Of a DNA stretch of 64,000 nucleotides, positions 2,132-54,788 are shown one piece after another. Source of the DNA: an uncultured Ignavibacteriales bacterium (GTDB lineage Bacteria > Zixibacteria > MSB-5A5 > GN15 > JAAZOE01); assembly GCA_964523575.1 (NCBI GenBank), contig CAZGAV010000012.1, positions 385-64,384 on the forward strand, written 5' to 3'. Within the stretch, counting starts at the first letter, position 1, and each line of letters opens with the position of its first letter. Both the position numbers and the translations under genes were made by a program. The notes below the pieces were generated by a model. The model was not told the DNA's origin and ran no database searches. It saw nothing but the letters and a program-made list of their open reading frames with translations.

Positions 2132-2142
2132 GATGAACTCCT

Positions 2143-3018: not shown

Positions 3019-3156
3019 GATTCCTCCAGGTTACTTGCGCAGGCGTTCGCCTTACTTCTCTTTCACTTAACAGTACAATACTAAACGCGTTCCAATAGTT
3101 ATAACAGCCGTTGACCGCCGAAGTTCACGCGATTGACACGCCGGCGGCGGGGACGA

Positions 3157-4371
3157 TTATCCTCCGACGTGGCTGAGTCTGACAATCCTTTCCGTTTCGC
3201 GGGCGATGACCAGTTCTTCGTTGGTCGGCACGACCATGACCTTGACGGGCGAATCGTCAGCCGAAACGGCTCCGATTTCCCCTTTGTGGGCCAGATTTTT
3301 TTCCTCGTCGATCCGGATCCCCAGGAACTCGAGCCCGGCGCAGGACATGCGGCGGACATCCGGCGAATTTTCGCCGACGCCGCCGGTGAAGACCAGGATA
3401 TCCAGCCCGCCCAAAGCGGCCATATAGGAGCCGATATACTTCTTGATGCGGTAAGTGTAGACATCCAGAGCGAGCTTGGCGTTGGGCCGGCCTTCAGCGG
3501 TGGCCTTGAGAATCTCGCGCACATCGGACGACAGGCCGGAAATTCCATACAATCCGGAATGCTTATTGAGCAGGGTATTGGCTTCGTGAAGCGACAATTC
3601 CTCCTGGCTCATGATATGCAGGATGATGGCCGGATCGCAGTCGCCGCTGCGGGTGCCCATGAGGAGGCCTTCAAGGGGAGTGAATCCCATGGAAGTATCG
3701 ACCGAAACGCCGCCGTCGATGGCGGCCATCGAGGCGCCGTTGCCCAAGTGGCAGGAAATAATTTTCAATTCTTCGATCGGCCGCTTGACGGCCTCGGCCG
3801 CGCGGGAGGAAACGAAGTAATGGGACGGGCCATGAAAACCATAGCGGCGAATGCCGTACTTTTTATACAGCAGATAGGGGATGCCGTAGATGTAGGCGTG
3901 CGGCGGCATCCGGTGATGGAAGGCGGTGTCGAACACCGCCACCTGAGGCACATTCTCCAGCGTTTTGGTGGCGGCCGTGATGCCCCGTATATTATGCGGA
4001 TTGTGCAGGGGGGCCAGGGCTATAAGGTCCCTGATTTCGCCCATCAATTCCCTCGTCACCAGCACCGATTCGGTGAATCGTTCGCCCCCATGCACGACGC
4101 GATGACCGACGGCGGATATTTCGCTTTTGTCCTTGATGACGCCGTGATTGGGGGAGAGGAGCATGGAAATGACGAAGTCGATAGCCTGGATATGATCCAG
4201 GATTTCGCCAGAGATCACCGTCTGGGGCCGGTCGAACGGCTTGTGGGTCAGGACCGAAGCCGACATGCCAATGCGATCGACTTTGCCCTGAGCCAGCGAC
4301 AGCTCCCGCTCCATATCGATCAACTGGTATTTGACCGATGATGATCCGCAATTAAGCACGAGTATTTTCAT
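3157..4371 (-). CDS. ackA: Acetate kinase
   Basis: N-terminal LNCGSSSVKY, plus GHRVVHGG, PLHNP, FDTAFH, RRYGFHG, HLGNGAS and FTGGVGEN motifs. Confidence 0.95.
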   Translation of the reverse strand: MKILVLNCGSSSVKYQLIDMERELSLAQGKVDRIGMSASVLTHKPFDRPQTVISGEILDHIQAIDFVISMLLSPNHGVIKDKSEISAVGHRVVHGGERFTESVLVTRELMGEIRDLIALAPLHNPHNIRGITAATKTLENVPQVAVFDTAFHHRMPPHAYIYGIPYLLYKKYGIRRYGFHGPSHYFVSSRAAEAVKRPIEELKIISCHLGNGASMAAIDGGVSVDTSMGFTPLEGLLMGTRSGDCDPAIILHIMSQEELSLHEANTLLNKHSGLYGISGLSSDVREILKATAEGRPNAKLALDVYTYRIKKYIGSYMAALGGLDILVFTGGVGENSPDVRRMSCAGLEFLGIRIDEEKNLAHKGEIGAVSADDSPVKVMVVPTNEELVIARETERIVRLSHVGG

Positions 4372-33840: not shown

Positions 33841-34599
33841 GTGAAACAGACAATCTTCGTAACTCTGAACGCGTTGATTTCCTTTGCCATCGGTTATGTC
33901 ACATGGGGAATCATCTTGAAGAATACTGAAGAGGGCACTCTGCCCCATTCGATTTACCAGGGCGGGCCTCTGGTCGTCCTGCTGATCATGATTCTGCTGA
34001 TGCTTATGTCTTTCGTGGTGGAACGGTTCCTGTCCCTGCGCGTCGCCAAGGGCAAAAGTTCCGTCCAGGTGTTCTTCAAGAACCTGATCGGCCATCTTCA
34101 GAACAACGATTTCGAGTCGGCGCTGGCGGCCTGCGACAAGCAGCGCGGCACGACGGCCAACGTTCTTCGGGCCGGTATTGAGCGATACATGCGCGTCAAA
34201 GACGATAACACCATGGAATCCGAGAAGAAGATGGCCGCGACACAGGCGGCTATCGAAGAAGCCAACGCGCTGGAAGGCCCGCTTCTGGAGCGCAACCTGA
34301 TCGCCATGTCAACGATCGCCTCGATCGCCACCATGGTCGGTCTGCTGGGTACGACCATCGGTATGATCCGCGCCTTTGCGGCCACCGGCCATGCCTCCGG
34401 CGGTGTTATCGATGCCACTCAGCTGGCGACCGGTATTTCCGAAGCGCTGGTTAACACCGCCGGCGGTTTGACTTCCGGTATTCTCGGTATTTTCTTCTAT
34501 AACTATTTTGTCAACAAAGTTGACTCTTTCAACTACACGACCGATGAGGCTACCTACGAGGTGCTTCAGTTGTTGAAAGCCAAGGAGGCGGCGAGTTAA
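33841..34599 (+). CDS. exbB: MotA/TolQ/ExbB proton channel protein
   Basis: IATMVGLLGTTIGMIRAF and GISEALVNTAGGL. Confidence 0.92.
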   Translation: MKQTIFVTLNALISFAIGYVTWGIILKNTEEGTLPHSIYQGGPLVVLLIMILLMLMSFVVERFLSLRVAKGKSSVQVFFKNLIGHLQNNDFESALAACDKQRGTTANVLRAGIERYMRVKDDNTMESEKKMAATQAAIEEANALEGPLLERNLIAMSTIASIATMVGLLGTTIGMIRAFAATGHASGGVIDATQLATGISEALVNTAGGLTSGILGIFFYNYFVNKVDSFNYTTDEATYEVLQLLKAKEAAS

Positions 34600-35070
34600 A
34601 TGAAGATTAAAAAGAAAAGGCGCCTCAGCATCAAGATCGATATGACCCCGATGGTGGATATCGCCTTTCTTCTCCTGATCTTTTATATGACGACGACTCA
34701 GTTCAAACCGCCGGAGAAGAAGAAGGTCGATTTGCCGACGTCGCATTCGCAGGTTTCCCTGCCGGATAAGGATGTCATCAACGTCACGGTGACGGCCGAC
34801 GATTCCATCTTCGTCGATTATATCGTCAAAAAAACGGTTAATATCGACGGCCGCGATATCACGATGCCGGTGCGTATGTATGACGAGGCGACTACTGGCA
34901 CGGTCGGCGCCCTGATTAACTCGGCCCGAATTCGCAGTCCCCGGGCCTTTCTGGTGATCAAAGCCGACAAGCAATCGAGTTACGGGGTGATGGAAGGGAT
35001 AATGAAAACCCTTCAGGAACAACATCTCTCCCGTTTCCAGATAATCACGCTGAGTGAACAAGAGACTTAA
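34600..35070 (+). CDS. exbD: ExbD/TolR family protein 1
   Basis: IDMTPMVDIAFLLLIF (conserved Asp) and IKADK..SYG. Confidence 0.9.
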   Translation: MKIKKKRRLSIKIDMTPMVDIAFLLLIFYMTTTQFKPPEKKKVDLPTSHSQVSLPDKDVINVTVTADDSIFVDYIVKKTVNIDGRDITMPVRMYDEATTGTVGALINSARIRSPRAFLVIKADKQSSYGVMEGIMKTLQEQHLSRFQIITLSEQET

Positions 35071-35091
35071 CGTTTAAGGTGGTGATTTAAC

Positions 35092-35718
35092 ATGGCTGGT
35101 GCCGATGTAAGTGCAGACAGGCCAAAAGGCGGAAAGAAACAAGGCCTGCGCCGTCCCAAAAGGCGGCTCTCTGTCCGAATCGATATGACTCCGATGGTCG
35201 ATATCGCGTTTCTCCTGCTTATTTTCTATATGGTAACGACGGTTTTTTCGATGCCGCAGGCGATGGAAGTCAACCTGCCGCCGGCGTCTGAGGAAGAAAC
35301 TCAGATCAAAGTCAAAGACAGCAATCTTCTGACCATTCATGTCGACGGAAAAAACCAATTCTACTGGAATATCGGGCGCGAGTTGCCGGTGCCGATGAAA
35401 GCCGATTCCCTTCGAACCCTCATGGTCGACCAGAACAAGGCCAATCCCAAATTGAGCACGCTCCTTATCATCAACAAGGAAGCCCGTTATAAAACCATGG
35501 TTGACATCCTCGACGAGATCGATCTCATAGAACGTTCCTTCAATAACGCCACGGCCAAGGAACTGGGCGTCACTCTGAAAGATTTCAACGATCCCGATAA
35601 TGAGCGGTACGAGGAATTTAAGGCCAAGAAGTTTTCCTACCGCTATGCCATGTCACCCTGGGAAGACCGCGATTCGAGAATTATCGAAAAGGTCCTCTCA
35701 TTGCATGGGGGTGAATAG
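35092..35718 (+). CDS. exbD: ExbD/TolR family protein 2
   Basis: IDMTPMVDIAFLLLIF and ARYKTMVDILDE. Confidence 0.9.
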   Translation: MAGADVSADRPKGGKKQGLRRPKRRLSVRIDMTPMVDIAFLLLIFYMVTTVFSMPQAMEVNLPPASEEETQIKVKDSNLLTIHVDGKNQFYWNIGRELPVPMKADSLRTLMVDQNKANPKLSTLLIINKEARYKTMVDILDEIDLIERSFNNATAKELGVTLKDFNDPDNERYEEFKAKKFSYRYAMSPWEDRDSRIIEKVLSLHGGE

Positions 35719-35720
35719 CT

Positions 35721-36446
35721 ATGGCCCAATCTGCAAGCACCTATTACGGCGCGTTTGAATTAAAACGCAGGTACCAGCGCAATATGTTGCTGGGTACCGG
35801 TTTTTCGGCGGCCTTGACGGCTTTGGTTATCCTCTCGATATGGATTTACAATATTATCACCTATGAGGATATGGAAGTCAGAAACGTCGTCCGGATCAAA
35901 ACCATCGCTGAACTGGGCGCGCCGCCTTCGCTGGCGGCTAAACCGCCCCAGGTCAGCATCGACAAGCCGAATGTCGCCCCACCCAAGGTCGGTATTCCGA
36001 CGGCGGTGGCCGACGATGAGGTCGTCGATGAGGATATCGTTATCGCCTCCCGGGAAGAACTCCAGGAGATCAATGCTCCGGTGCTGTCCGGCGCCGGAAA
36101 CGGTTCCAATACGGAACTGATTATCGATATCCCCGATGAAGACTATATGCCTTCGCCCGACGAATTCGTTCCGGTGGAAGAATACCCCGTACAGATTTCC
36201 GAGGAAATTCCGGAGTACCCTCGTCTGGCGCAGGAAGGCGGATTCACCGGATCGGTGATTGTCCAGGCCTATGTTGACAAAAACGGCGACGTCAAGAAGG
36301 CTCAGGCGGTAAAATGTACTCGGCCCAATATGGGCTTTGAGGAATCCGCGGTCAAAGCGGCCTACAAAAACAAATATCGCCCGGCCATCCAGAACGGCAA
36401 TCCCATCGGCCTCTGGATCGAGTATAAAATCGACTTTACGCTCTAA
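35721..36446 (+). CDS. tonB: Energy transducer TonB 1
   Basis: YGAFELKRRY N-terminus, a TM, a Pro/acidic linker, and TonB_C (PEYP..A..G.V.V...VDKNG..FEESAVKA..YRPAIQNG). Confidence 0.9.
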   Translation: MAQSASTYYGAFELKRRYQRNMLLGTGFSAALTALVILSIWIYNIITYEDMEVRNVVRIKTIAELGAPPSLAAKPPQVSIDKPNVAPPKVGIPTAVADDEVVDEDIVIASREELQEINAPVLSGAGNGSNTELIIDIPDEDYMPSPDEFVPVEEYPVQISEEIPEYPRLAQEGGFTGSVIVQAYVDKNGDVKKAQAVKCTRPNMGFEESAVKAAYKNKYRPAIQNGNPIGLWIEYKIDFTL

Positions 36447-36624
36447 TCGCCGAAATGAAATGCGGGGGAAGATAGAGCAATCTTCCCCCGGCAAATTCGT
36501 TATACCCCTCCGGGGCGGCCGCCCGTCCCGTTGACGTCACATCCCTCACGTCCCTCACGTCCGCGCAGCGCTACTTACCGGTAGTCCGTACACCGGAACG
36601 AGAAAACGGTGTGGCGGCCTTCCG

Positions 36625-36706
36625 TCCGAGAGAAAAGGCGTTAACCGGTCAGCCTTCGGCTTCGAAGCCGGCGGCCGACCAAGACAGCCTTTGAACGGAG
36701 GGAAAA
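36625..36706 (+). promoter_or_regulatory. Structured 5' leader A (homologous to 37733-37804)
   Basis: Starts tccgagagaaaaggc. aaaggc pairs with gccttt (36687-36692) around an inner ggtc/gacc and cggct/agccg stem, ending 4 nt before the ggaggg SD. Confidence 0.5.
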
Positions 36707-37006
36707 ATGAGGATACGCTATAGCCAACAGGCGCTGGTCTGGCAGAAACCGGACCGACTTCGGGAAATCGGCGTGTTTCCTCCCGGATGGCGGCAAGAAT
36801 GGTTCACCAACCTCTGCCTGGCGGCGGCTCTGACGGCTCTGTTGTTTCTCATGCTGTTATCCATCTATCTTGTTTTCACCAAACCGGCGGCGACGTCCAT
36901 TCCCGGCTATCCGCGCACCGGAGCCGCGGCTTCGGGTACGGGATTCGCCCATATTAACGGCCCGTCGGATGGGGAAGCGCCGATCGTTTCAAGAAACTGG
37001 GGATAG
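36707..37006 (+). CDS. Small single-TM protein A (99 aa)
   Basis: Strong ggaggg SD and TM LCLAAALTALLFLMLLSIYLV. Similar to 37805..38128. Confidence 0.6.
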   Translation: MRIRYSQQALVWQKPDRLREIGVFPPGWRQEWFTNLCLAAALTALLFLMLLSIYLVFTKPAATSIPGYPRTGAAASGTGFAHINGPSDGEAPIVSRNWG

Positions 37007-37044
37007 CAGGAATCAGCGCCGTTTATCGAAGGAGGTGATGATAA

Positions 37045-37704
37045 ATGGCAGGCGTTGATCTGGGCAAGGCCCGACCCGTCCGAGACGATAAGCCGAAAAG
37101 CCGGCGTCGAATAAAACGTCGCACCGGCGTGCGAGTGGTTATGACGCCGATGGTTGATATCGCTTTCCTGCTGTTGATTTTCTATATGGTGACCACGATT
37201 TTCGCCATGCCCCAGGCGATGGGGGTCAATCTTCCGCCCGACGAGGTCGTTACGGTTGGGAAATTGCTCACCATCCGGGTTGATGGACAGAATCGATTTT
37301 ATTGGAATCTCGGTCATGATTTGCCGGTCCCGATGAGGGCCGATTCCCTGTTCACTTTGCTTTTTGATAAGAGCCGCGAAATCCCGAAACTGAATACCCT
37401 GCTTACCATCCATCCGCAGGCAAGATACCATGTTATGGTCGATATCCTCGATGAAATCGACCTGGTTGAAAGAAAGTTCAACGACGGGGTAGCGGCCAGA
37501 CTCGGCGTTTCCGCCGAAATTTTCAACGATCCCGATAATGACCGATACAGCGAATTTTATGATAAACGATTTTCGTATCGTTACGCCACCGCGCCGTGGG
37601 AGGACCGCGACACCAGAATAATTAATAAGATATGGCGCACCGGAAGGGGGGGAATAGCCATGAATAACAAAACCGCGATTATCTTTGATGATGAGTTTCC
37701 TTGA
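37045..37704 (+). CDS. exbD: ExbD/TolR family protein 3 (close paralog of ExbD2)
   Basis: MTPMVDIAFLLLIFYMVTT. It aligns over nearly its full length with 35092..35718 (FNDPDN.RY.EF, FSYRYA..PWEDRD.RII). Confidence 0.88.
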   Translation: MAGVDLGKARPVRDDKPKSRRRIKRRTGVRVVMTPMVDIAFLLLIFYMVTTIFAMPQAMGVNLPPDEVVTVGKLLTIRVDGQNRFYWNLGHDLPVPMRADSLFTLLFDKSREIPKLNTLLTIHPQARYHVMVDILDEIDLVERKFNDGVAARLGVSAEIFNDPDNDRYSEFYDKRFSYRYATAPWEDRDTRIINKIWRTGRGGIAMNNKTAIIFDDEFP

Positions 37705-37728
37705 CGACTATAAAATATAAGTTATAAT
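37701..37728 (+). promoter_or_regulatory. sigma70-type promoter for the ORF B-tonB2 unit
   Basis: TTGACG-N16-TATAAT, overlapping the exbD3 stop codon. Confidence 0.7.
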
Positions 37729-37732
37729 ATTT

Positions 37733-37804
37733 TCCGAGAGAAAAGGCCGATGATCGGCGCCGGGCCGGTCATACATCCCGCGACCTTTTGATAAGGAGGG
37801 AGAC
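37733..37804 (+). promoter_or_regulatory. Structured 5' leader B
   Basis: Same 15-mer tccgagagaaaaggc. aaaagg pairs with cctttt (37784-37789) around atgatcggc/gccggtcat, ending 5 nt before the ggaggg SD. Confidence 0.55.
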
Positions 37805-38128
37805 ATGAGCCTTTTTTCAAACCCCGAATATATAATTCTCACGCCCATCCCCGCGAGAGCCGCCGTCGCTTGCACCGACAGCGGGAATTATGCCGTCATA
37901 AAATCGCTTTTGATGGCCGCCGTGCTTGGCGCGGTGCTGTTCATGACGGTCCTTTCCATCCTGTTCGTGCATTTGGGCCAGGTTCCGTCTTTCCCCGGAA
38001 CTCATACCGGCCGGAATCATGATAAACCGCGGATGGTACAGGCCCTCGATACTCTCCAAAACAATTCTGACTGCTTTATATCAATAACAAAGACAAAAGG
38101 GGGTGAATATCATGATGCGCTCATTTGA
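37805..38128 (+). CDS. Small single-TM protein B (107 aa)
   Basis: aaggaggg SD and TM LLMAAVLGAVLFMTVLSILFV. Similar to ORF A. Confidence 0.6.
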   Translation: MSLFSNPEYIILTPIPARAAVACTDSGNYAVIKSLLMAAVLGAVLFMTVLSILFVHLGQVPSFPGTHTGRNHDKPRMVQALDTLQNNSDCFISITKTKGGEYHDALI

Positions 38129-38864
38129 ACTGCCTTATGGCGCCTTTGAATTAAAAAGCCGCTACCAGCGAAATATGCTTATCGGAACGACAACGGCCGT
38201 GTTGCTGGCGACGGCGTTGATCAGCTTAATCTGGATTCTGGGCTGCGCCGCCGCAGTGGAAACGCAGATTGTGGATCCGCCCGGACTCACCGACAGCATG
38301 ACGATAATATTTGTCGAGCCGTCTCCACCCGGCATCGACGATATTCGAGGCGGCAAGGGCATCAAACCACCGCCGCCATCTAAATTGGATAATGGTATTT
38401 TCGTCGCGGTTGACGATTTACTGGCCGAGGAGGATACGGTCGACTTTTCGGAACTGCATAAAAGGGGGACAGGTGAATACGATCCGGAGGCGGAATATGG
38501 CGAAGACGGCGACCAAGGTGAGCCCGGCGGGCTATATATCGGCCCGGAGGTAATACCTCCCGTGGGGGCTTTCATCGCTGTCGAAGTTGGGCCCGTGATC
38601 ATCCATGAACAAAAACCGGAATATCCGCGTCTCGCCCTGGAGGGGGGATTCACGGCTTCGGTTTTCATCGACGCCTTCGTTGGCCGCGAAGGACAGGTGC
38701 TCGACGCCCGAGTCGCCCGATGCACTCGAAACCATATGGGTTTTGAGGAAGCGGCCCTGAAGGCCGCTTATAAATGCACCTATCGGCCGGCCATCCAGAA
38801 CGGGGCCCCGGTCGGTGTCTGGATCAGCTATCAAGTCGATTTTGTCTTGGACAGGTCGCGATAG
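38112..38864 (+). CDS. tonB: Energy transducer TonB 2 (paralog of TonB1)
   Basis: YGAFELKSRYQRNML, a TM, and TonB_C ..CTRNHMGFEEAALKAAYK..YRPAIQNG. It has the same gggggtgaata start context as tonB1. Confidence 0.88.
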   Translation: MMRSFELPYGAFELKSRYQRNMLIGTTTAVLLATALISLIWILGCAAAVETQIVDPPGLTDSMTIIFVEPSPPGIDDIRGGKGIKPPPPSKLDNGIFVAVDDLLAEEDTVDFSELHKRGTGEYDPEAEYGEDGDQGEPGGLYIGPEVIPPVGAFIAVEVGPVIIHEQKPEYPRLALEGGFTASVFIDAFVGREGQVLDARVARCTRNHMGFEEAALKAAYKCTYRPAIQNGAPVGVWISYQVDFVLDRSR

Positions 38865-39066
38865 AGCAAAATAATTCCCCCTCGTCGGTTCACCCGGGGG
38901 CCGGACGCGGCCCCCCTTCGCCGCCTTATTTTTGTGTTGTCGATATCGGGCCGGGGCTGAAAGGCACTTTTCCTATGGGGGCATTTTCAATATGTCGTGT
39001 CGATTTTTAGATTGACCACAATATATGGCAATCGGACTCCAATAATGATAATTATAAAAAAATCGC

Positions 39067-39095
39067 TTGACAACTGCACAAATGTGCAGTATTTT
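39067..39095 (+). promoter_or_regulatory. sigma70-type promoter whose spacer is filled by an 18-bp palindrome (candidate LexA/SOS box)
   Basis: TTGACA-N17-TATTTT, with ACTGCACA-aa-TGTGCAGT at 39073-39090. Confidence 0.7.
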
Positions 39096-39137
39096 TAATT
39101 TGACACCGATAATAATACCGGACACAAGGAGCAGGCC

Positions 39138-39356
39138 ATGGATTGCAATCAATACTCGGAACGGAAAGTTATCTCCGCGGCGGACCGATGCCGGGGCTCG
39201 TCGCAGCGGAAACCGGCACCATCGGACGAGGCGCGACTTTTAGCGTCCCGGCCATCGTCCGGCCCGCAGGCGGGTCGTTGTACCTGTGGGGGAGTGCTGG
39301 TCAGGCGCGGATACTGCTTCGTGTGCGTTGTCTGCGGCTGGGGAAGTTGTGAGTGA
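39138..39356 (+). CDS. Zn-ribbon microprotein (72 aa) resembling the C-terminal Cys-rich tail of class II ribonucleotide reductases
   Basis: aaggag SD and C-terminal CTCGGVLVRRGYCFVCVVCGWGSCE. Confidence 0.6.
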   Translation: MDCNQYSERKVISAADRCRGSSQRKPAPSDEARLLASRPSSGPQAGRCTCGGVLVRRGYCFVCVVCGWGSCE

Positions 39357-39412: not shown

Positions 39413-42040
39413 ATGCGAAAACGACTGGCGAAATCGGGACTGCCGGAGCCGATTCTGGCGCAATGGGAAGAACGATTCCACGGGCGACTTCTGCCGCTCC
39501 AATATCGGGCGGTTGAGGAATATAAGCTTCTGGAGGGGAATTCGCTTTTAATCTCGGCGCCGACCTCTTCGGGCAAAACCTTCTGCGGCGAAATGGCTCT
39601 GGTGCGGGCCGTGCAACAGCGGCAGAAGGGCATTTTCCTGGTGCCGCTGAAGGCGGTGGCCGAGGAAAAATACCGTCACTTCGTCGATTGCTACGGCGGC
39701 CTCGGCTTACGCGTCGTTATCGCTACCCGGGATCATCCCGAAAATGACGGCCTGGTCGAAAGCGGCCGGTTCGATATCGCCGTGATGATTTACGAGAAAT
39801 TCAATTCCCTGTTATTGACCAATTTTGACCTCATGTCGCAGGTTGGCACGGTCGTCGTCGATGAATTGCAGATGCTTGAGGACAAAACGCGCGGGCCTCA
39901 ACTGGAATTGGCCCTGACCAAACTGCTCTATTCGGAATACCGGCCTCAGCTGGTGGCTCTTTCGGCCGTTCTGGGCGAAGCCACCGAACTGGCCGAATGG
40001 CTGGGTTGCCGCCTCTTGCTGGAAAATATGCGCCCGGTGGAATTACGACGGGGGGTGGTTTCTGACGGTCGTTTCTATTTCCGATGCCATAATTCCGGCG
40101 AACTGGGGGAAGATACCTGCCGGCAGGGCGAAGATATCAACCTGACCTTGTTCGAGAATATCCAGGCGGTCACGGCCGTCGGCAAACAGACTTTGGTGTT
40201 TCTCAAATCGCGGCGCGATACCATGCTCGCGGCCCGGCGTTTCGCGGAATATACCCATCGTGCATCATGGTCGAAAAACAAAGAATTCTTCGATGCAAAG
40301 TTGGCCGACGAAGAGGAATCGTCGCTTCTCAAAAACCTCCGCAGTCTTCTGACGGTCGGCATTGCGTTCCATAACGCCGACCTGACCGCCGCCCAACGGC
40401 TGGCCGTCGAAGAAGGTTACCGGGCCGGTTTGATCGACGTTATTTTTGCGACCACTACTCTCTCGACCGGCATCAACTTACCTGCGGCGACAGTTTTCAT
40501 CGAGGCGCAAAAATATCGGCGGCAGGGCTATAGCGGCCGTCCCGGTCTCGAACCACTCTCATGGGCCGAATACGAAAGCATGTCCGGTCGGGCCGGCCGA
40601 GTCGGATTGACCGATGAAGAGGGCGATGGCCAGGCGGTGTTATTCGCCTCCGGCGAACTGGAGAAGTCAATTCTCTGGGAATACTATATCGACCGGCAGG
40701 CGGCGTCGCTCAAATCCCAATTGCCGTCGCGCCATCCGGCCGATATCCTCATCGACCTTTTCAGTTCCGGGCTTGTTCGGAGCCCCGAGGAGACCGCCCG
40801 GCTTCTCGAAAAATCATATTGCCATATATGTAATGACCAAAATACAAGCGATATAGAGAATATATGTGAAGTATTACTTGATGATGGTTTTTTGGTTCGG
40901 CAGGGCCGGCAAATCACGGCTACGCCTCTGGGGCAAACCGTTGCCGTCACCGGCATGACGGTGGCCGGCGCCGACTGTATCCTGAAGAGACTGCCCCGTC
41001 CCGAAACCGAAAGCGACGGTCAAATCCTCTTTCATTTGTTCCAATTGCCCGAGGCCGGATCACTGTACTTGCCGACACCAGCCGGCCGAGGGCGGATGCG
41101 CCTGCCTCGAAGATTTTTCGCCGAATCGGCTGAGGAAAATCCGTTAATCCGGGAGCTGTCGGCCATGCAGCGGGAACTGGCCCCCGACGAAATCAACCGC
41201 CTGGGGCTGGCGCTTTTGATGGAAGACTGGATGGCCGGAATGCCGGCCATCGAAATCGAAAGCAATTACGCCCTTCATCCGGGGATGATGGAAAATCTGG
41301 GTTATCAAACGGGATGGCTGCTGGCTTCGGCGGCGGCTATCGTCCGCGCCTGCGACCGTTTTGCATCCCTGCCCGCGCGACTCGATGATCTGGCCTTTGC
41401 CTCCCGGACGGGACTGCCGGTCGTTTATCGGGACCTTTACAAGGATTTCGGGGATATCCTTTTCCGCAGTGACTGGCTGGCTCTGCATCACAGGGAAATC
41501 ACCGATCGGCGCCGGATGCTTGATGAAGGTCTGGAGATTATCAGAAGTCGGACGAAGTCGGAAGAACGCCTGATCAAAATCGAAGAAAGATTCCATAAAA
41601 TAAAGGAGGCTTCTATGTCATCGAAAGGTGTATCGATGCTGAGTACGGCCCCGTGGCCGGAAACCATTGAAATCGACGGAACTCCCATCCGGGAACGGTT
41701 CCGGGTGCGGATCAATGGTCATACGGTGAACCTGACCGGGAAATCTTTCAAGTACCTTGTCAAGCTGGCCTGGTCGAGGCTAACTAAAGACAGTGGATGG
41801 TTATACAAGGAAGATTTAGAGTGTGGCTTTAATCAGGCCCGATACCTGTATCGTCTCCGACAGGAGATCGGCCGGGATTTTCTGCCGGAATGGCCGTTGT
41901 ACGAAAACAACCGCTCTGGCTATTATCGGCTGGCCGCTGACCGGGAAGGGATCAAGATCAATGTCGAGGCTTTGAAGGAAATTCCGGATTATGAGATTCA
42001 GCAAATAGCCCTGGATTTGAATCCGGTGGCGGCCGGTTAA
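39413..42040 (+). CDS. Ski2/Hel308-like SF2 helicase with C-terminal OmpR/PhoB-like winged-helix domain
   Basis: Motifs APTSSGKT, VVVDELQ, ALSAV, MRPVEL, AFHNADL, TTTLSTGINLPA and MSGRAGR. C-terminus is INGHTVNLTGKSFKYLVKL..YLYRLRQEIG..ENNRSGYYRL. Start trimmed to ATG 39413. Confidence 0.88.
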   Translation: MRKRLAKSGLPEPILAQWEERFHGRLLPLQYRAVEEYKLLEGNSLLISAPTSSGKTFCGEMALVRAVQQRQKGIFLVPLKAVAEEKYRHFVDCYGGLGLRVVIATRDHPENDGLVESGRFDIAVMIYEKFNSLLLTNFDLMSQVGTVVVDELQMLEDKTRGPQLELALTKLLYSEYRPQLVALSAVLGEATELAEWLGCRLLLENMRPVELRRGVVSDGRFYFRCHNSGELGEDTCRQGEDINLTLFENIQAVTAVGKQTLVFLKSRRDTMLAARRFAEYTHRASWSKNKEFFDAKLADEEESSLLKNLRSLLTVGIAFHNADLTAAQRLAVEEGYRAGLIDVIFATTTLSTGINLPAATVFIEAQKYRRQGYSGRPGLEPLSWAEYESMSGRAGRVGLTDEEGDGQAVLFASGELEKSILWEYYIDRQAASLKSQLPSRHPADILIDLFSSGLVRSPEETARLLEKSYCHICNDQNTSDIENICEVLLDDGFLVRQGRQITATPLGQTVAVTGMTVAGADCILKRLPRPETESDGQILFHLFQLPEAGSLYLPTPAGRGRMRLPRRFFAESAEENPLIRELSAMQRELAPDEINRLGLALLMEDWMAGMPAIEIESNYALHPGMMENLGYQTGWLLASAAAIVRACDRFASLPARLDDLAFASRTGLPVVYRDLYKDFGDILFRSDWLALHHREITDRRRMLDEGLEIIRSRTKSEERLIKIEERFHKIKEASMSSKGVSMLSTAPWPETIEIDGTPIRERFRVRINGHTVNLTGKSFKYLVKLAWSRLTKDSGWLYKEDLECGFNQARYLYRLRQEIGRDFLPEWPLYENNRSGYYRLAADREGIKINVEALKEIPDYEIQQIALDLNPVAAG

Positions 42041-42114: not shown

Positions 42115-42128
42115 CTCTTGAGAAAAGA

Positions 42129-44681
42129 TTGTATAAGCCGATAAGAAACGTAAAGATGACCATGATTATAAAGCCTCGTAAACATTTGCCGCTTGACGAA
42201 ACTCAGGCGGAAAAAAACCTGCCGGTTTTACCGCTCAGGTCGGCCGTGATATTTCCGGGTGAAATTTACACTATCCAGATGGGCCGCAAGGAGAACCTGG
42301 AACTGCTCAAGGCTGTAGCCCAGCGGGATAACCTGCTGGTCCTATCCTTCGCACCCCAGGATGTGCCATCCGGGGCCGCCCCGCGGCTGTCTCAGGTGAG
42401 CGTCCTGGCCCGGATCGAGTCCATCAAGCCGTCAATGGCCAATTCACAGATGGTCACGCTCGAAGGACTGCAACGTGTCGCCCTGATGGATATCGTCACC
42501 TCGGTGCCGTTCATCGAGGCCCGGGTACAGGAGGTCAGGGAGGAAAACACCGACGGAAGCGTCGTCGAAGGTTATCTCTCAGAAGTCACGCACCTGATGA
42601 CCCAGCTGGTCCGAATCGATAATCGTTATTCCAATGAATTGATATATAATCTGGAAATGAACCGACCCTTGCCGAGCGCCTTCGCCGATCGCATCGGGGC
42701 TATGATTCATTTTCAATTGAGCGACAAGCAGGAAATTATTGACTCCCTGGAAATCGGCAGTCGTCTCGAAACGATAATCCGCCTGCTCAAAGATGAAATC
42801 GACAAATTTTCCCTGACGACGCAGATCAATACGCGGGTGAACGAATCGCTGGAAAGGAAGAAGCGCGAGAATTTCCTGCGCCAGCAATTGGCCGAAATCC
42901 GGAGGGAGCTGGGCGAAGAGTTTATCGAGGAAGACGTTTCCAAGATCTATCGCCAGAAAATCAGCGAAAACAAGGCCTTGCCGGCCGAGGTCGCCAATCG
43001 TCTTCTCCTGGAAATCGATCGCCTGGTGCATCTGCCGTCGTCTTCGGCGGAATACGGTTCCACCAAAAATTATATCGACCTGATGCTCTCGTTGCCGTGG
43101 CAGAGCCCGCCCATGGAACCTTTCGATCTGGTCGACGTTGAAGCCGCTATCGGCCGCGAATATTACGGGCTGTCCCATATCAAAGAACAGGTTCTGGAAT
43201 ATCTGTCGATGCGGCAGTTGAGCCGCGATAAAAGGGATTTGCCGATCCTTTGCCTCGCGGGCGCGGTTGGAACCGGCAAGGCGTCTCTGGTCAAGGCTAT
43301 CGCCAAGGCGATGGGCCGGGAATTGGTCCGAATCAACGGCACCAGCCTGATAATCAGCGAAGATATCAAAGGTTTGCATCGCAGTGAAATCGGTTCCGGA
43401 CCGGGGCAATTGGTGCGTGCCATCCAACGCGCCGGATCATTCGATCTCGTGATCTACCTCGAGGATCTGGAGTATGTGATCGAATCCGAGGACACCAACG
43501 CCCTGCTGGCCTTGCTGGAGGCCGTTGATCCGAGGCAAAACGGCCATTTTGTCGATAATTTCGTCGGCATTCCTCTCGATCTTTCCCGGGTCTTGTTCGT
43601 TCTGGGCATTACCGCCGAGGATTTCCCGGAACCGTTCGCTCACCGCCTGGAAATGATCGAGATGTCGGGCTATATCGAGCGGGAGAAGATCGTCATTACC
43701 AAGAAACATATCCTGCCCAAATTGTATAAACGATATGGCTTGACCCGGGCCGAATTGCGTTTTACCGACCGGGGTCTGGCGCGGATTATTCGCCAGTACA
43801 CTATGGAAGCCGGGACGATCGGACTGCAACAACAGCTGGAGAAGATTTTCCGGCGGATTACCCGCAAGAAAGCCATCAGCGAAAAATGTAATTATGTGCT
43901 CAAGGAAAACAATGTCGATCAGTACCTGGGAACGCCGCAGTATATACCCGAGAAGGCCATGTCCAAGCCGGAAATCGGCGTGGCCAACGGTCTGGCCTGG
44001 ACCGGAGCCGGCGGTGATTTAATGCTGATCGAAGGATTGAAAATGCGGGGTACGGGCCAGGTTTTCACGACCGGATCATTGGGCGAAGTGATGAAAGAAT
44101 CGATCCAGGCGGCCCATAGCTTTGTGCGCGCCCGGGCCGATTTACTCGGGATCGACCATAATGACTTCGTCAATTTCGATATCCATATTCACTTTCCACA
44201 GGGGGCTATTCCCAAAGATGGCCCTTCGGCCGGGGTTACCGTCTCGCTGGTGATCGCCTCGGTTATGGCCGAACGGCCGATTCGGAGTGATATCGCCATG
44301 ACCGGCGAAGTGACGCTTCGAGGCCGGGTACTGCCGGTCAGCGGCGTCAAAGAGAAGGTCTCGGCGGCCTACCGCGCCGGAGTGCACACTATTATCCTGC
44401 CCAAGGAAAATCAGAAGGATATCAAGGAAATACCGCGGGAAATCGTCCGGAAAACATCGTTTGAGTTCATCGAAACCGTCGACGAGTTATTCGAAAAAGG
44501 ACTGCTTGATTTTACTCCCTCGACCTATACTCTGGAAAAAATCTTTGCCGAGGAAATCGAAAAGGCCCGCAAACGAGGCCGTACGAAATCCAGGGCCGCC
44601 GCAGGCAAAACCCCGAAAAAGACTAAAACCACCAAGAGCAAAGCTACGAAAACCAGGACGACGAAAAAGAAAAGTGAATAG
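42129..44681 (+). CDS. lon: Lon (endopeptidase La)-like protease with degenerate AAA+ motifs (start may be ATG 42156)
   Basis: LPVLPLR N-domain, a protease domain with PKDGPSAG (Ser) and GVKEK (Lys), Walker [10 protein letters not shown] and Walker B region IYLEDLE. Confidence 0.88.
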
Positions 44682-50523: not shown

Positions 50524-51828
50524 ATGCTTCGGAAGACCTATTATTTACATAGTTATGGTTGCCAGATGAATCTGGCCGATTCCGGGATTCTTTCGGCCGC
50601 TATGGAGGCGGCCGGTTATACGCCGGTGGCCGACCCCGCCCGTGCCGGCGTTATAATCCTCAATACCTGTTCGGTGAGGGAGAAGGCCGAAGAGCGGGCC
50701 TTAGGCCGCCTGACGGAACTGGTGCGCTTCAAACAAAACGAGGAAACCTGTGTCTGCGCCGTCGGCTGTATGGCGCAGAGGATGGGAGCGAAACTGCTCG
50801 AGCGGATTCCGGGTATCGATTTTATCCTCGGCACTCAGCAATTGTTCGAGCTACCCCGGTTGCTGGCCGGCAAAAACGGTCAGCCGGTCATCGAAACTGA
50901 AATCAGCAACGGCTTGGAATGGGCCGAGTATCCGCCCGAACCGGACAATCCTTATTTGGCCCATGTCACCATCACCCGCGGCTGTAATAATTATTGCGCC
51001 TATTGCATCGTGCCTTACCTTCGCGGTCCGGAACGCCATCGGAAACCGGAAGCGATCATTCGCGATATCAATCATCTCGCCGAAAAGGGCGTTCTTGATC
51101 TGACTTTGGTGGGGCAGAATGTCAATTCCTACCGCTTCGACCGCATGCAGTTTCCCGAGTTGATCCGGATGGTCCTTCATGAGACCGGGATCAGACGACT
51201 GAGGTTTATCACGTCTCATCCCAAAGACCTCTCCGATGAACTAATCGACCTGTTTGCCGCCGAACCCCGGCTTATGGGTCATGTCCATCTGCCGCTCCAG
51301 AGCGGCTCCGACCGGATTCTGGAAAAAATGTTTCGGCGCTATACATTCGGTCATTATTATGGTCTTGTGGACAAATTGCGGCAGGCCCGGGCGGATATCG
51401 CCTTGACTACCGATCTTATTGTCGGTTTCCCCGGAGAAACCGGGGAAGATTATGAAATGACTCTCGAGGCGGTGAGTGATATCCGTTTTGACGCTGCCTT
51501 CATGTTCCGCTATTCGACGCGCGAAGGCACCTGGGCGGCTAAAAATCTGGTCGATGATATCCCGGAAGAAGAGAAGCTCGCCCGCCTGCGTCGCTTGATT
51601 GATCTCCAGAAACAAATATCATACGAGGTCAATCAGAAGGAAGTCAGCCGCGTCCGGGAAACTCTGATCGACGGCGTGAGCCGCCGCGATGACCGGGTAT
51701 GGAAAGGCAAGACTGAGGGAAACAAAACAGTTCTGGTCGAATCCGATCAGGAATTGCTCGGCCGGATCATGCCGATAAAAATCACGCGGGCCGATAGCTG
51801 GACTCTGCACGGCGAGGTGGCCCTATGA
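50524..51828 (+). CDS. miaB: tRNA-2-methylthio-N6-dimethylallyladenosine synthase MiaB
   Basis: SYGCQMN, LNTCSVREKAE, radical SAM motif GCNNYCAYCIVP, and a C-terminal TRAM domain. Confidence 0.93.
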   Translation: MLRKTYYLHSYGCQMNLADSGILSAAMEAAGYTPVADPARAGVIILNTCSVREKAEERALGRLTELVRFKQNEETCVCAVGCMAQRMGAKLLERIPGIDFILGTQQLFELPRLLAGKNGQPVIETEISNGLEWAEYPPEPDNPYLAHVTITRGCNNYCAYCIVPYLRGPERHRKPEAIIRDINHLAEKGVLDLTLVGQNVNSYRFDRMQFPELIRMVLHETGIRRLRFITSHPKDLSDELIDLFAAEPRLMGHVHLPLQSGSDRILEKMFRRYTFGHYYGLVDKLRQARADIALTTDLIVGFPGETGEDYEMTLEAVSDIRFDAAFMFRYSTREGTWAAKNLVDDIPEEEKLARLRRLIDLQKQISYEVNQKEVSRVRETLIDGVSRRDDRVWKGKTEGNKTVLVESDQELLGRIMPIKITRADSWTLHGEVAL

Positions 51829-54788
51829 GTATCGAATTGCTCGGCGCCATCCTCTTTTTTGTCCTGACCGTTTTCGCCCTGCTGTTCAGCCTGACCAAAA
51901 CCTCGCAGATCGACGCCGAAAGTTTCCCCAATCGGACGAGGTTTTATATTGGGTTGATGGTCTTGATTCTCTCGGGTATCCTGGCCGTTTTCATGAGCTT
52001 CCCCGGTTATGCAGAGTGGTTTGTCCCGGCCGTGTATCCTGTCCTGAAAATCACCTTTTTGATTTTCTTCATTGCCGGTTTCTTCATGGCCTTGACGACC
52101 CTGATCGCCTTTCCGCAACATATGAATTATTATCGCCGGGAGATCAACGGCCGCTCCGACCGCATCGCCTTGCTCGAAAACATCCGGCAGATAGCGTCGC
52201 AACCGTATCCGATAACGGAATTATTCACGCTCGTCCTGAAGGAGCTGGGCAGTTTTCTGGTGCTCCAGAAGGGAGCGGTGTTCATGATTAACCCATCGCG
52301 GCGAGAGATGTATTTGGTGGCCCAGATCGGTCTTGACCGCGAGGAGTTGAGCCGCCTGGAGAGATTTCCAATGGGCCGCGATATTATATCGCAGGCGGCT
52401 ATGGAGCAGGAGCCATGCATCTCCGGCGATCTGGCCTCCGCCGACAGCGGGAGTCGAAAACTAATTCTTGCCGGCCGCGATTTGACCCTTTCGGCCGCCG
52501 CCCTGCCATTATCATCGCGCGACCGTTCTCTTGGAGCTTTGCTGGTCCTTTCCGACAAGCCGTATCGATTTGAAAAGCGGGATCGAATGTTGCTTATGGC
52601 CGCCGCCGAAGCGGTCGCCGGAGTGGTGGAATCGAATCGCCTCTCCCGCGATAACCAGAAACTGGCCGGTCGGCTCGACGATGTCTCGGCCCGCCTCGAC
52701 AGTTTCCGGGCCGGTTTGAATGAAATTGCATCAGGCGTGGATCATCACGTAATCCTGACTTCGACCTGTCGGCGATTGGCGGAAAAATACAGCGCTCTGG
52801 CCTGTCGTATCGTCAAAATCGAAAACGGGGAATTGATCAATATCGCCCACCATGAATCCATGGCCGATACTTCACTGGGCAGTCAATCCTATCGCATCGC
52901 CGTCATCGACGCCATCCGGCGCAAGAAAATGGTCGTCCTTAATCAGGAGGCCAGGAATCGGGAAGGCGGCGTTTATATCAGCCGTTCCGCGCTATTATGC
53001 CCCTTCAACCTGAAGGTGCCGGGTGAATACGCCATGTTGCTGGAAGCGCCCGGCAGCGGTCTGGCGCTGGATAATCAATTTTTATCGGAGGTTGAAATCG
53101 AAGTCAACCTGGTGACGATGGCCATGAATTTGTACGGCCTGAAAGACGTCGAATCATTCAATCAGACTTCGGTAACGGCCCTTCTACGAATATTGAAAAT
53201 TCCGCCGCAAGCGGCGCCGGAGGAAATATTTCGGAGCTTTCAGGCCGAGACCGAACGTCTGCTGGCGGAGGATTCGACGGCCCTGGTCTTCATCCGTGAC
53301 GATGACCACCGGTACCGGATACTTGACAGTGGTCATCTGACGGTCGGCGACTTGGCCGAAACGGTTTTCCTGCCGGGCGAGGGGCCGATCGGTCATTCGG
53401 CCGCGACCGGGGAGACACTGGAATTTATCGGCCGGGAGAAGGTCGCCAAAGGATGGAGCGGCCTCGATCAGGTCAATCAGGATTTCCTGAATTATCTCGG
53501 CGGGGAAAAAGGTTTGCCCGATTATCAACTGTGCATTCCTGTCTCAGTGCTCGATCAGGTCGTCGGTGTGGTGGCGGTTTTCGGTCATGGAGTCGGGCCT
53601 CGCTCCGAGGGGAAAGAGAAAGCCCTGGTGCTTCTGGCGGCGCAATTACTGTCGATCAGGATGTCGATGGCCGAACTGGAAAGCCGTCCCTTCGGGGAGG
53701 ACGTGACCGGGATGGGCGCCGATATCGGACATACTATCAACCGCATCAACAACGATCTGGCCACTATCATGGGGCAGGCCGAATTGCTGGAACGCCAGAC
53801 CGATGTGTCGGGCCAGACCCGTTTGGTCGCCGGTGAAATTTTGAAGGCCGCCGAACAAGCGGCCGGCGCGGTGCGCCGCCTGCAGGATGGTACCCTGCCG
53901 GCGCCGTTGGAGCCGCGCAGGGCGGCGGATGATCTGACCGGACGCCTCGGCCGCTTCCTCGAGGGCCATCATGTCACGGGCAATTTATATATGTTCGACA
54001 ACAACCGAACGGTGATGATGCGTCAGGATCTGGCCGAAACCCCATCACGGGTACTGCCGGATGAACGATTGTCATCCATTATGGAAGAAATTCTCAAATA
54101 TTTCGTCACGCTCCAGGAAGAGGGCGATGAGGTCCTCTTGCAAACCCGGATCGCCGAAAACTACTTCTATATCAGCCTCGTGCGCGGCTCACGGGAAAAG
54201 CATGACGCCTTCGAGCCTTCGGCGCATGATTTCGGCGCCCCCGATGTCCTGCCGACGGATATCGCCGACCAACCAATGGTAAAAGTTCTTGGCGATCAGA
54301 AAAGCGAAGTGTCCTTCGATCGGTTCGGTCGTCGGCCCACGTACTTGTCATTCCGCTTCCCGCTGGAAGGCCGATCCGTAGAGACGCCGCCGGTTCGACC
54401 AGGCTCCGCCGTGGCCGGTCTGAAAATTCTGGCTATCGACGATCAGCAGATGATCCTTGATTTGCTGGCCGGAATCTGCCAGTCGCTCGGGCTGGAATTG
54501 TCGGCTTTCATCGACCCGGCCCTCGGTTTGGAGGCGTTCAAGAATGACCGCTTCGATATCGTCATGGTCGATCTGGCTCTGGGTCAGGTTTCGGGCTGGG
54601 AAATTGCCCGGGAAATCAAGCATCATTCGCCCGAGACGCCGGTGATTATGATGACTGGCTGGGGCATGAATATCGATCCCGATAAGGCGGCCTCCGGTGG
54701 GGTCGATTTTACATTGGCCAAACCGTTTAGGATTGAACAACTTACGGAAGTCATCAAACAGGCCAAAATTAAACTCCATTCATCTTAA
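51825..54788 (+). CDS. Membrane GAF-domain hybrid sensor with degenerate HisKA/HATPase and intact receiver domain
   Basis: 3 N-terminal TMs, GAF-like regions, HisKA-like GHTINRINNDLATIMGQAELL, and REC ILAIDD..IVMVDL..MMTG..LAKPF. Confidence 0.75.
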   Translation: MSIELLGAILFFVLTVFALLFSLTKTSQIDAESFPNRTRFYIGLMVLILSGILAVFMSFPGYAEWFVPAVYPVLKITFLIFFIAGFFMALTTLIAFPQHMNYYRREINGRSDRIALLENIRQIASQPYPITELFTLVLKELGSFLVLQKGAVFMINPSRREMYLVAQIGLDREELSRLERFPMGRDIISQAAMEQEPCISGDLASADSGSRKLILAGRDLTLSAAALPLSSRDRSLGALLVLSDKPYRFEKRDRMLLMAAAEAVAGVVESNRLSRDNQKLAGRLDDVSARLDSFRAGLNEIASGVDHHVILTSTCRRLAEKYSALACRIVKIENGELINIAHHESMADTSLGSQSYRIAVIDAIRRKKMVVLNQEARNREGGVYISRSALLCPFNLKVPGEYAMLLEAPGSGLALDNQFLSEVEIEVNLVTMAMNLYGLKDVESFNQTSVTALLRILKIPPQAAPEEIFRSFQAETERLLAEDSTALVFIRDDDHRYRILDSGHLTVGDLAETVFLPGEGPIGHSAATGETLEFIGREKVAKGWSGLDQVNQDFLNYLGGEKGLPDYQLCIPVSVLDQVVGVVAVFGHGVGPRSEGKEKALVLLAAQLLSIRMSMAELESRPFGEDVTGMGADIGHTINRINNDLATIMGQAELLERQTDVSGQTRLVAGEILKAAEQAAGAVRRLQDGTLPAPLEPRRAADDLTGRLGRFLEGHHVTGNLYMFDNNRTVMMRQDLAETPSRVLPDERLSSIMEEILKYFVTLQEEGDEVLLQTRIAENYFYISLVRGSREKHDAFEPSAHDFGAPDVLPTDIADQPMVKVLGDQKSEVSFDRFGRRPTYLSFRFPLEGRSVETPPVRPGSAVAGLKILAIDDQQMILDLLAGICQSLGLELSAFIDPALGLEAFKNDRFDIVMVDLALGQVSGWEIAREIKHHSPETPVIMMTGWGMNIDPDKAASGGVDFTLAKPFRIEQLTEVIKQAKIKLHSS

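Follow-up and report, generated by a model that had tools for sequence, protein, structure and literature searches.

A predicted LexA operator of the Fibrobacter type in the promoter of a Zn-ribbon and Hel308-like helicase operon of a Zixibacterium

Introduction

Which regulator, if any, acts on a perfect palindrome that fills the spacer of a promoter upstream of a helicase gene? The question is raised by a stretch of 64,000 nucleotides (contig CAZGAV010000012.1, positions 385 to 64,384, assembly GCA_964523575.1, deposited as an uncultured Ignavibacteriales bacterium and placed by GTDB in the Zixibacteria), which we call the window; the promoter lies at positions 39067–39095, and the sequencing runs found to contain the window sequence were all DNA runs from salt-marsh metagenomes. 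A first-pass annotation made from the sequence had proposed that the palindrome is an SOS box of the Fibrobacter type, that the SOS motif in this lineage related to the Fibrobacteres–Chlorobi–Bacteroidetes (FCB) group would have this form, and that the genes behind it are damage-inducible. The LexA protein of Fibrobacter succinogenes reportedly recognizes TGCNC-N4-GTGCA, as shown by electrophoretic mobility shift assays and footprinting. By comparison with relatives we conclude that the 18-bp palindrome at 39073–39090 is very probably the LexA operator of this Zixibacterium. Its conservation and the content of the regulon that it marks are what convince, more than the palindrome itself.

Results

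The palindrome fills the spacer of a promoter

The elements of the promoter are as follows.

39067–39072, + strand: –35 hexamer TTGACA (sequence, promoter scan)
39073–39089: 17-bp spacer ACTGCACAAATGTGCAG (sequence, promoter scan)
39073–39090, no strand: predicted LexA operator (SOS box), 18 bp, ACTGCACA-AA-TGTGCAGT (sequence, conservation)
39090–39095, + strand: –10 hexamer TATTTT, the first T of which is the last base of the operator (sequence, promoter scan)

As the first-pass annotation had it, the palindrome occupies the whole spacer between TTGACA and TATTTT; this is apparent in the sequence (cgcTTGACA-ACTGCACAAATGTGCAG-TATTTTtaatt) and in the promoter scan, which independently calls TTGACA-17-TATTTT with 10 of 12 hexamer matches. 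The inverted repeat is perfect, with 8-nt arms ACTGCACA and TGTGCAGT around the 2-nt centre AA, and it contains the core CTGCAC-N4-GTGCAG at 39074–39089. Within this core, TGCAC-AAAT-GTGCA (TGCACAAATGTGCA, 39075–39088) fits TGCNC-N4-GTGCA as had been claimed, and is the sole such site in the window. The palindrome thus overlaps the core promoter, and at least 61 further promoters show an equivalent placement.

The site is conserved in orthologous helicase promoters

The promoter opens a unit that encodes a small Zn-ribbon protein and a Hel308-like helicase, followed by lon. Orthologous loci were fetched from metagenomes and assemblies by protein similarity (L001/L006, L002, L003, L004, L083/L084, L085, L086 and L212). 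In nine of nine independent orthologous promoters, whose helicases are 56–71% identical, CTGCAC-N4-GTGCAG is kept between TTGAC(A/T) and TAT. The sites read (A/C)CTGCAC-(AAAT/GGAT/AGAT)-GTGCAG-T, with one mismatch in L003 (GTTCAG), and the intergenic sequence 5′ of an A-rich tract diverges among the loci. These loci are syntenic, with the tonB cluster, the small open reading frame (ORF), the helicase, lon and a BACON-domain protein.

The motif precedes SOS genes in three phyla

We then scanned one genome per species, 185,579 species in all, for ACTGCACANNTGTGCAGT, and obtained at least 120 loci. The matches listed comprise 19 from Zixibacteria, 22 from Eisenbacteria, 14 from Ignavibacteria, one from Fibrobacteria, 17 from metagenome-assembled genomes (MAGs) without a taxon label, and 47 others. 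Taxonomic labels of MAGs are used as deposited, and some of these (‘Planctomycetota’ L185, ‘Hyphomicrobiales’ L202) may belong to mis-binned contigs. At least 61 of the sites lie in a rigid module, bordered on one side by CTTGAC and a single further nucleotide and on the opposite side by AT, flanks that were outside the scan pattern. Among the matches listed, module sites include all 19 of the Zixibacteria, 16 of the Eisenbacteria, 12 of the Ignavibacteria and 12 of the unlabelled MAGs. Across Zixibacteria, Ignavibacteria and Eisenbacteria, promoters of the helicase, of lexA and of dinB have an invariant CTTGAC at the –35 offset, and a TAnnnT hexamer stands at the –10 position after every promoter-embedded site.

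With each site oriented by its promoter, the first downstream gene was identified per locus.

lexA: at least 15 loci (E 1e-12 to 1e-47 in phmmer comparisons with LexA of E. coli or B. subtilis)
DUF6504 and/or dinB, with or without dnaE2: at least 17 loci, including Zixibacteria L113 and Ignavibacteria L123
Zn-ribbon ORF and Hel308-like helicase, with or without lon: at least 27 loci in Zixibacteria and Ignavibacteria, the helicases being 35–70% identical to that of the window

The loci that begin with lexA come from Zixibacteria (L136, L149), Ignavibacteria (L099), Eisenbacteria (L093, L107, L111, L112, L181), L185 and six further MAGs, and imuA-imuB stands behind the site in L124. The genes behind the motif are the set expected of a LexA regulon. 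With lexA, dinB, DUF6504-dinB-dnaE2 and imuA-imuB following the same motif in relatives, the proposed identification as an SOS box of the Fibrobacter type is supported.

Several matches carry additional features. In L087, L107, L112, L126, L179, L181 and L206 (Eisenbacteria and other MAGs), lexA-(DUF6504)-dinB is followed by an MrfA-type helicase, with DEAD and MrfA Zn-binding (MZB) domains. Set beside the Hel308-like helicase of the window, this gives two helicase families in the SOS operons of sister phyla. The DUF6504 protein (∼82–84 aa) almost always precedes dinB or dnaE2 behind the box (L091–L096, L133, L139, L146, L175, L207, L208, L216 and others), and may assist the mutagenesis cassette as an accessory factor, in a role like that of ImuA. 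In Zixibacteria L129 (QZKQ01000055.1), a perfect promoter-embedded site with the –35 sequence TTGCAA precedes genes for an AAA_5-type ATPase and a 255-aa protein, which may form a further lineage-specific or mobile unit under SOS control.

Contigs labelled as other phyla also carry the full module, or a TTGCGC variant at –35, before lexA or DUF6504 (L128 and L188 from the ‘Verrucomicrobiia’ MAG SMAG_U13174, L177, L189, L185 and L202). These may be mis-binned Eisenbacteria-like contigs, in which case the 61 promoter-embedded sites are a lower bound.

Many of the ‘others’ (Catenibacterium, Spiroplasma, Clostridia and so on) have a different, terminator-like setting, flanked by A-runs and T-runs. 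Such 18-mers were seen in Firmicutes and Mollicutes (L127, L130, L152, L170, L184, L194, L200 and Catenibacterium), and four Catenibacterium genomes (L097, L102, L120 and L193) share one 18-mer flanked in this way. These flanks suggest bidirectional terminators, and we therefore take the 18-mer matches outside the FCB group not to be LexA boxes. A scan of viral contigs with CTGCACANNTGTGCAG gave 64 matches, which were left out of the analysis.

lexA promoters fetched by protein carry operator-like sequences in the same slot

The scan selects for the motif. Six lexA loci were fetched instead by protein identity, with the zixibacterial LexA of L136 as the query, and are thus unbiased for the motif. 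All six promoters have an operator-like sequence in the same slot, in which the –35 element is followed by 1 nt and an 18-nt site whose last T opens the –10 element.

L207 lexA promoter: TTGACGcCTGAACATTTGGGCAGTAACTT, 2 of 12 core positions mismatched
L208 lexA promoter: TTGACAgCTGAACATCTGTGCAGTAAATT, 1 of 12
L210 lexA promoter: TTGCAAgTGATACAAATGTTCAGTATCCA, 5 of 12
L213 lexA promoter: TTGTGGaCCACACAAATGTTCAGTATCAG, 3 of 12
L215 lexA promoter: TTGACGaCTGCACGTATGTGCAGTATCAT, 0 of 12
L216 lexA promoter: TTGACCgGTGAACAGATGGGCAGTATTAT, 3 of 12

The weaker of these operators have GAAC/GTTC-like halves (CTGAAC-N4-GTTCAG-like). Three MAGs supply a helicase site together with a lexA site (GCA_024231695.1, L212 and L207; GCA_016933695.1, L174 and L208; GCA_964617645.1, L168 and L215), and in all three the helicase site is perfect. 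The motif was thus present upstream of lexA in relatives, in at least 15 loci found by motif, and an operator-like sequence stood in its slot in six of six found by protein; absence of the motif there was what would have spoken against the first-pass annotation. With motif-bearing lexA promoters in Zixibacteria, Ignavibacteria and Eisenbacteria, the proposal that it represents the SOS motif of this FCB-related lineage is supported.

The zixibacterial LexA has the Pfam domains LexA_DNA_bind and Peptidase_S24. In an alignment with E. coli LexA, Ala84-Gly85, Ser119 and Lys156 are invariant in the LexA of this lineage, which is consistent with a repressor of the canonical, self-cleaving type.

Points against a LexA operator, and other readings of the palindrome

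Several observations weigh against the identification as a LexA operator. The palindrome alone is within chance expectation for the window: TGCNC-N4-GTGCA gives two hits there (one palindromic site counts twice) with 0.41 expected, at least two hits occurred in 12 of 100 shuffles, and the window has four perfect palindromes whose 8-nt arms enclose a 2-nt loop, where shuffles have about one. Searches of the window with CTGCAC-N4-GTGCAG and CTGMAC-N4-GTKCAG, allowing up to two mismatches, returned chance-level matches and no further credible site. It is by its position that the site gains significance: the composite TTG-N8-AC-N4-G-NN-CAGTA has one exact match in the window, and three matches with at most one mismatch where 0.31 are expected; the two further one-mismatch matches both fall inside long ORFs and were rejected. 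Because the palindrome alone is unremarkable, the case rests on context and conservation.

Here too there are weak points. Several of the lexA operators have three to five core mismatches and are recognized mainly by position, and lexA lies outside the 64-kb window, so that regulator and site are linked via relatives only. The tallies come from a scan by exact consensus over at least 120 loci, and are therefore biased towards perfect sites. The SOS genes covered are lexA, dinB, dnaE2, imuA-imuB and the MrfA-type helicase; when every fetched locus was searched by tblastn with E. coli RecA, the ImuA-like gene in L124 was the one match and no recA turned up. Finally, distant helicase homologues on AT-rich contigs (L007–L018, ∼36–52% identity over partial alignments) are without the site, their best site-like match having 6–8 mismatches of 16, and the association of helicase and site therefore fails for some homologues.

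A repressor other than LexA might use the site, either a regulator devoted to mutagenesis and helicase genes and acting on lexA as well, or the Zn-ribbon protein acting on its own promoter. Helicase-type sites are without exception followed first by the Zn-ribbon ORF, as autoregulation would have it; however, the same motif and architecture also stand before lexA, dinB, dnaE2 and imuAB operons that have no Zn-ribbon gene, and they occur in Eisenbacteria, among whose listed loci there was no Hel308-like unit. The architecture of these promoters is more rigid than is usual for LexA boxes, which favours another protein. Against this, a site in the promoter of the repressor's own gene and before translesion polymerase genes is the classic signature of LexA, and the motif matches the LexA site that was reportedly defined by experiment in a related phylum. 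We consider a non-LexA repressor improbable.

The inverted repeat might instead act as an RNA hairpin, as a terminator of the upstream tonB-type operon or as a 5′ structure. The terminator scan does list the palindrome, as a 7-bp stem followed by ATTTTTAATT, and its predicted fold has –10.5 kcal/mol (z = –3.1). A better terminator follows the tonB-type gene at 38896–38924, however, and a transcript starting ∼7 nt after the –10 hexamer would leave the hairpin outside the downstream mRNA. Whereas many matches in Firmicutes and Mollicutes have the A-runs and T-runs of terminators, the flanks in the FCB phyla are always TTGAC and TA, without such runs, and the site is found behind unrelated or divergent upstream genes. 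It is moreover the sequence that is conserved, without compensatory changes in the stem, and in lexA promoters the arms vary independently with loss of complementarity (CTGAAC...GGGCAG). We regard a hairpin function as very unlikely.

That the palindrome arose by chance in an AT-rich intergenic region and is functionless, which the window-level statistics would allow, is refuted by the comparative sequence data, in which the site is kept in all nine orthologues (56–71% protein identity) while the neighbouring intergenic sequence diverges, and is heavily enriched before SOS genes in three phyla.

Genes around the promoter

The features surrounding the predicted LexA operator are as follows.

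38103–38864, + strand (that of the promoter): upstream tonB-type gene
38896–38924, + strand: G+C-rich hairpin and T-run, likely intrinsic terminator of the tonB-type gene (terminator scan, palindrome list)
39106–39113, + strand: leader element CCGATAAT, ∼10 nt 3′ of the –10 hexamer (conservation in relatives)
39126–39131: ribosome-binding site AAGGAG, upstream of the 72-aa ORF
39138–39356, + strand: 72-aa Cys-rich ORF, first gene of the unit, with the C-terminal Zn-ribbon-like motif C-x-C...CFxCxxCGWGSC
39413–42040, + strand: Hel308/Ski2-like superfamily-2 helicase, 875 aa, start MRKRLAK as in database protein P0001
42086–42114, + strand: sigma-70-like promoter TTGACA-17-TAAACT without a LexA box, in the helicase–lon gap (promoter scan)
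42117–42145: conserved block CTTGAGAAAAG...TGTATAAGCCGATAAG (CTTGAGAAAAGATTGTATAAGCCGATAAG), 3′ of the lon-proximal promoter
42156–44681, + strand: Lon protease (TIGR00763 lon, 631 bits, above cut-off; Pfam Lon_C and LON_substr_bdg)

Upstream of the promoter, domain searches identify ExbD/TonB-type genes on the same strand; the window at 33841–38864 holds tandem duplicated sets of ExbB/ExbD/TonB-type genes, syntenic in all close relatives. The terminator scan reads 38896–38924 as GCGGCCCCCCTTCGCCGC followed by CTTATTTTTG, and the palindrome list has GGGGGCCGGACGCGGCCCCC at 38896. Because of this likely terminator, the SOS promoter opens a new transcription unit.

In the leader, (C)CGATA(A) recurs at a matching offset in most of the Zixibacteria and Ignavibacteria helicase leaders, and the similar GCCGATAAG precedes lon. 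An extended –10 reading of the helicase leader was considered and fitted poorly. The 72-aa Zn-ribbon ORF matched no Pfam or NCBIfam family, even at E = 0.01. About 25 homologues between box and helicase have in common the C-terminal motif CP[DE]CG..[LIV]R.G.CF.C..CG..SC, which at the helicase orthologue loci reads CP[DE]CG..[LIV]R.G.CF.C..CG.GSC; in the subclade of the window, C-x-C replaces CP[DE]C.

The helicase has the Pfam domains DEAD, Helicase_C and Helicase_dom4_arc, with APTSSGKT as motif I and DELQ as motif II, and an extra C-terminal domain of ∼190 aa. Its best matches among solved structures are archaeal Hel308/Hjm (2va8, 2zj2 and 2p6r, E 4e-57 to 2.5e-54), together with the helicase domain of Pol-theta. 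The NCBIfam Hel308 equivalogs score 228–336 bits, with cut-offs of 887–1216; we therefore call it Hel308-like and do not file it as a member of that family. It is on its homology to archaeal Hel308/Hjm that the label ‘repair helicase’ is based. The annotations of its homologues read Zixibacteria or FCB group, and the closest of them is 71% identical. A start at GTG 39353 was rejected, as it gave no exact-sequence match and the database protein begins at ATG 39413.

The start of lon at ATG 42156 was read from the sequence and agrees with the called starts of orthologues. lon directly follows the helicase in Zixibacteria and some Ignavibacteria (L083–L086, L212, L114, L116, L122, L138, L142, L151 and L178). 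The terminator scan found no terminator-like site between 42040 and 42156, and because there is no strong terminator between the two genes, lon may be partly co-transcribed with the helicase; it may thus be partly SOS-inducible here, unlike in E. coli. Of four orthologous loci, the three closest (L085, L086 and L212) keep the separate promoter of lon, L083 being without TTGACA. The conserved block, which ends in GCCGATAAG directly before lon in the window and in four orthologous loci, might serve as another regulatory site or as a promoter of the heat-shock type; reading the pre-lon element as sigma-32-type was considered and fitted poorly.

In Zixibacteria L088 (JAPLUS010000138.1), the box is followed by a gene for a 189-aa protein and then directly by lon (oriented ORFs 37–606 and 728–3162). 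This protein is homologous only to the C-terminal ∼190-aa domain of the helicase (window 41470–42040), with ∼50% identity. The domain (LTGKSFKYL...NQARYLYRLRQEI) resembles a winged-helix module and may have a functional link to Lon.

Elsewhere in the window, 50524–54788 holds ORFs of 434 and 987 aa where relatives have Metallophos and AAA_23/SMC_N genes (SbcD/SbcC-like; L083). Motif searches of the window found no LexA box near these ORFs.

Discussion

We envisage the following mechanism. The operator sits between the two hexamers of a strong sigma-70 promoter (TTGACA-17-TATTTT), so that a LexA dimer on 39073–39090 would cover the –35 and –10 hexamers and exclude RNA polymerase. Upon DNA damage, filaments of RecA on single-stranded DNA would trigger self-cleavage of LexA at Ala-Gly and free the promoter. 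The transcript, which would start at ∼39102–39104, would encode the Zn-ribbon protein and the Hel308-like helicase, probably with some read-through into lon, which also has its own promoter. By analogy with Hel308/HELQ, stalled forks or crosslinks are the probable substrates of the helicase. LexA binding, repression, damage induction and a helicase role in repair or fork restart are all things that we infer.

A more ambitious proposal, which we regard as possible and advance tentatively, has two parts: that the Zn-ribbon and Hel308-like helicase unit, with lon downstream, is a core SOS member in Zixibacteria and Ignavibacteria, with the best-matching operators; and that the 29-bp module TTGAC-N-ACTGCACANNTGTGCAGT-A is one rigid unit across three phyla. 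If this is so, the helicase would correspond in bacteria to archaeal Hel308 and metazoan HELQ and would have been recruited under LexA control, and the module would point to geometry-dependent repression, or to the spread of a promoter cassette, rather than to free placement of LexA boxes. Both the rigid promoter–operator module and the prominence of this operon in the regulon may be new.

Taken together, the comparisons would extend the Fibrobacter-type SOS box to three more FCB phyla and add a new SOS member. For Zixibacteria, Ignavibacteria and Eisenbacteria, which are uncultured or poorly studied, they offer a testable definition of the LexA motif and sketch the SOS regulon for the first time, and they tie these phyla to the Fibrobacter branch of LexA-motif evolution, from which Balneolaeota and Bacteroidetes differ. 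They also point to a candidate for a new bacterial function that is induced by damage, namely a Hel308-like helicase that has a small Zn-ribbon protein as its partner and lon beside it. The rigid operator-in-spacer design could be used for annotating SOS genes in metagenomes.

Comparison with known systems

A search of the literature turned up no description of a LexA motif in Zixibacteria, Ignavibacteria or Eisenbacteria. The closest likeness is to the consensus reported for F. succinogenes: the palindromic core TGCAC-N4-GTGCA is common to both, with equal spacing, and Fibrobacter reportedly has, as here, a canonical LexA (winged helix-turn-helix and S24), an autoregulated lexA and membership of the FCB superphylum. 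The consensus here is longer, however (ACTGCACA-N2-TGTGCAGT), and is part of a fixed module, TTGAC-N-site, in which the last T opens the –10 element; it is found in Zixibacteria, Ignavibacteria and Eisenbacteria, and the regulon includes the Zn-ribbon and Hel308-like helicase operon. The F. succinogenes LexA work is cited in PMC3091678, without the motif.

The box described here also resembles that of Gram-positive bacteria in being a palindrome with 4-nt spacing that goes with a canonical LexA, and its weaker lexA variants contain GAAC/GTTC. The Gram-positive Cheo box, CGAAC-N4-GTTCG, is bound by the Bacillus subtilis LexA/DinR and varies in position relative to the promoter. GCAC/GTGC is preferred here, not GAAC/GTTC, and the position is fixed. 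The GAAC/GTTC halves of the weak lexA operators accord with the proposal that the Fibrobacter motif descends from the Gram-positive box.

Two other FCB lineages have SOS control of a different kind. The LexA motif of Balneolaeota, defined by comparative genomics, is a direct repeat, TTACACATATTTTWTACATA, with a regulon that holds lexA, translesion polymerases and ‘a helicase’ (PMC7739468); Balneolaeota too are a phylum of the FCB group, yet this direct repeat is unrelated in sequence to the strict palindrome described here. Bacteroidetes have a non-canonical LexA, an S24 repressor with a CI-like N-terminal domain, as described in PMC8565304, which makes no mention of the other FCB lineages looked for in it, Fibrobacter, Ignavibacteria, Chlorobi and Zixibacteria. 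The repressor here, in contrast, has the canonical LexA_DNA_bind domain.

The helicase has its relatives further afield. Archaeal Hel308/Hjm and metazoan HELQ/Pol-theta (2va8, 2zj2, 2p6r and 5a9f) align over ∼630 residues, including the ratchet-containing domain 4. It differs from them in being bacterial, in its DELQ motif II, in its extra ∼190-aa C-terminal domain, and in being paired with a Zn-ribbon protein and lon. Stalled forks and the repair of crosslinks are where enzymes of the Hel308/HELQ type act, in keeping with a role for this helicase in the SOS response.

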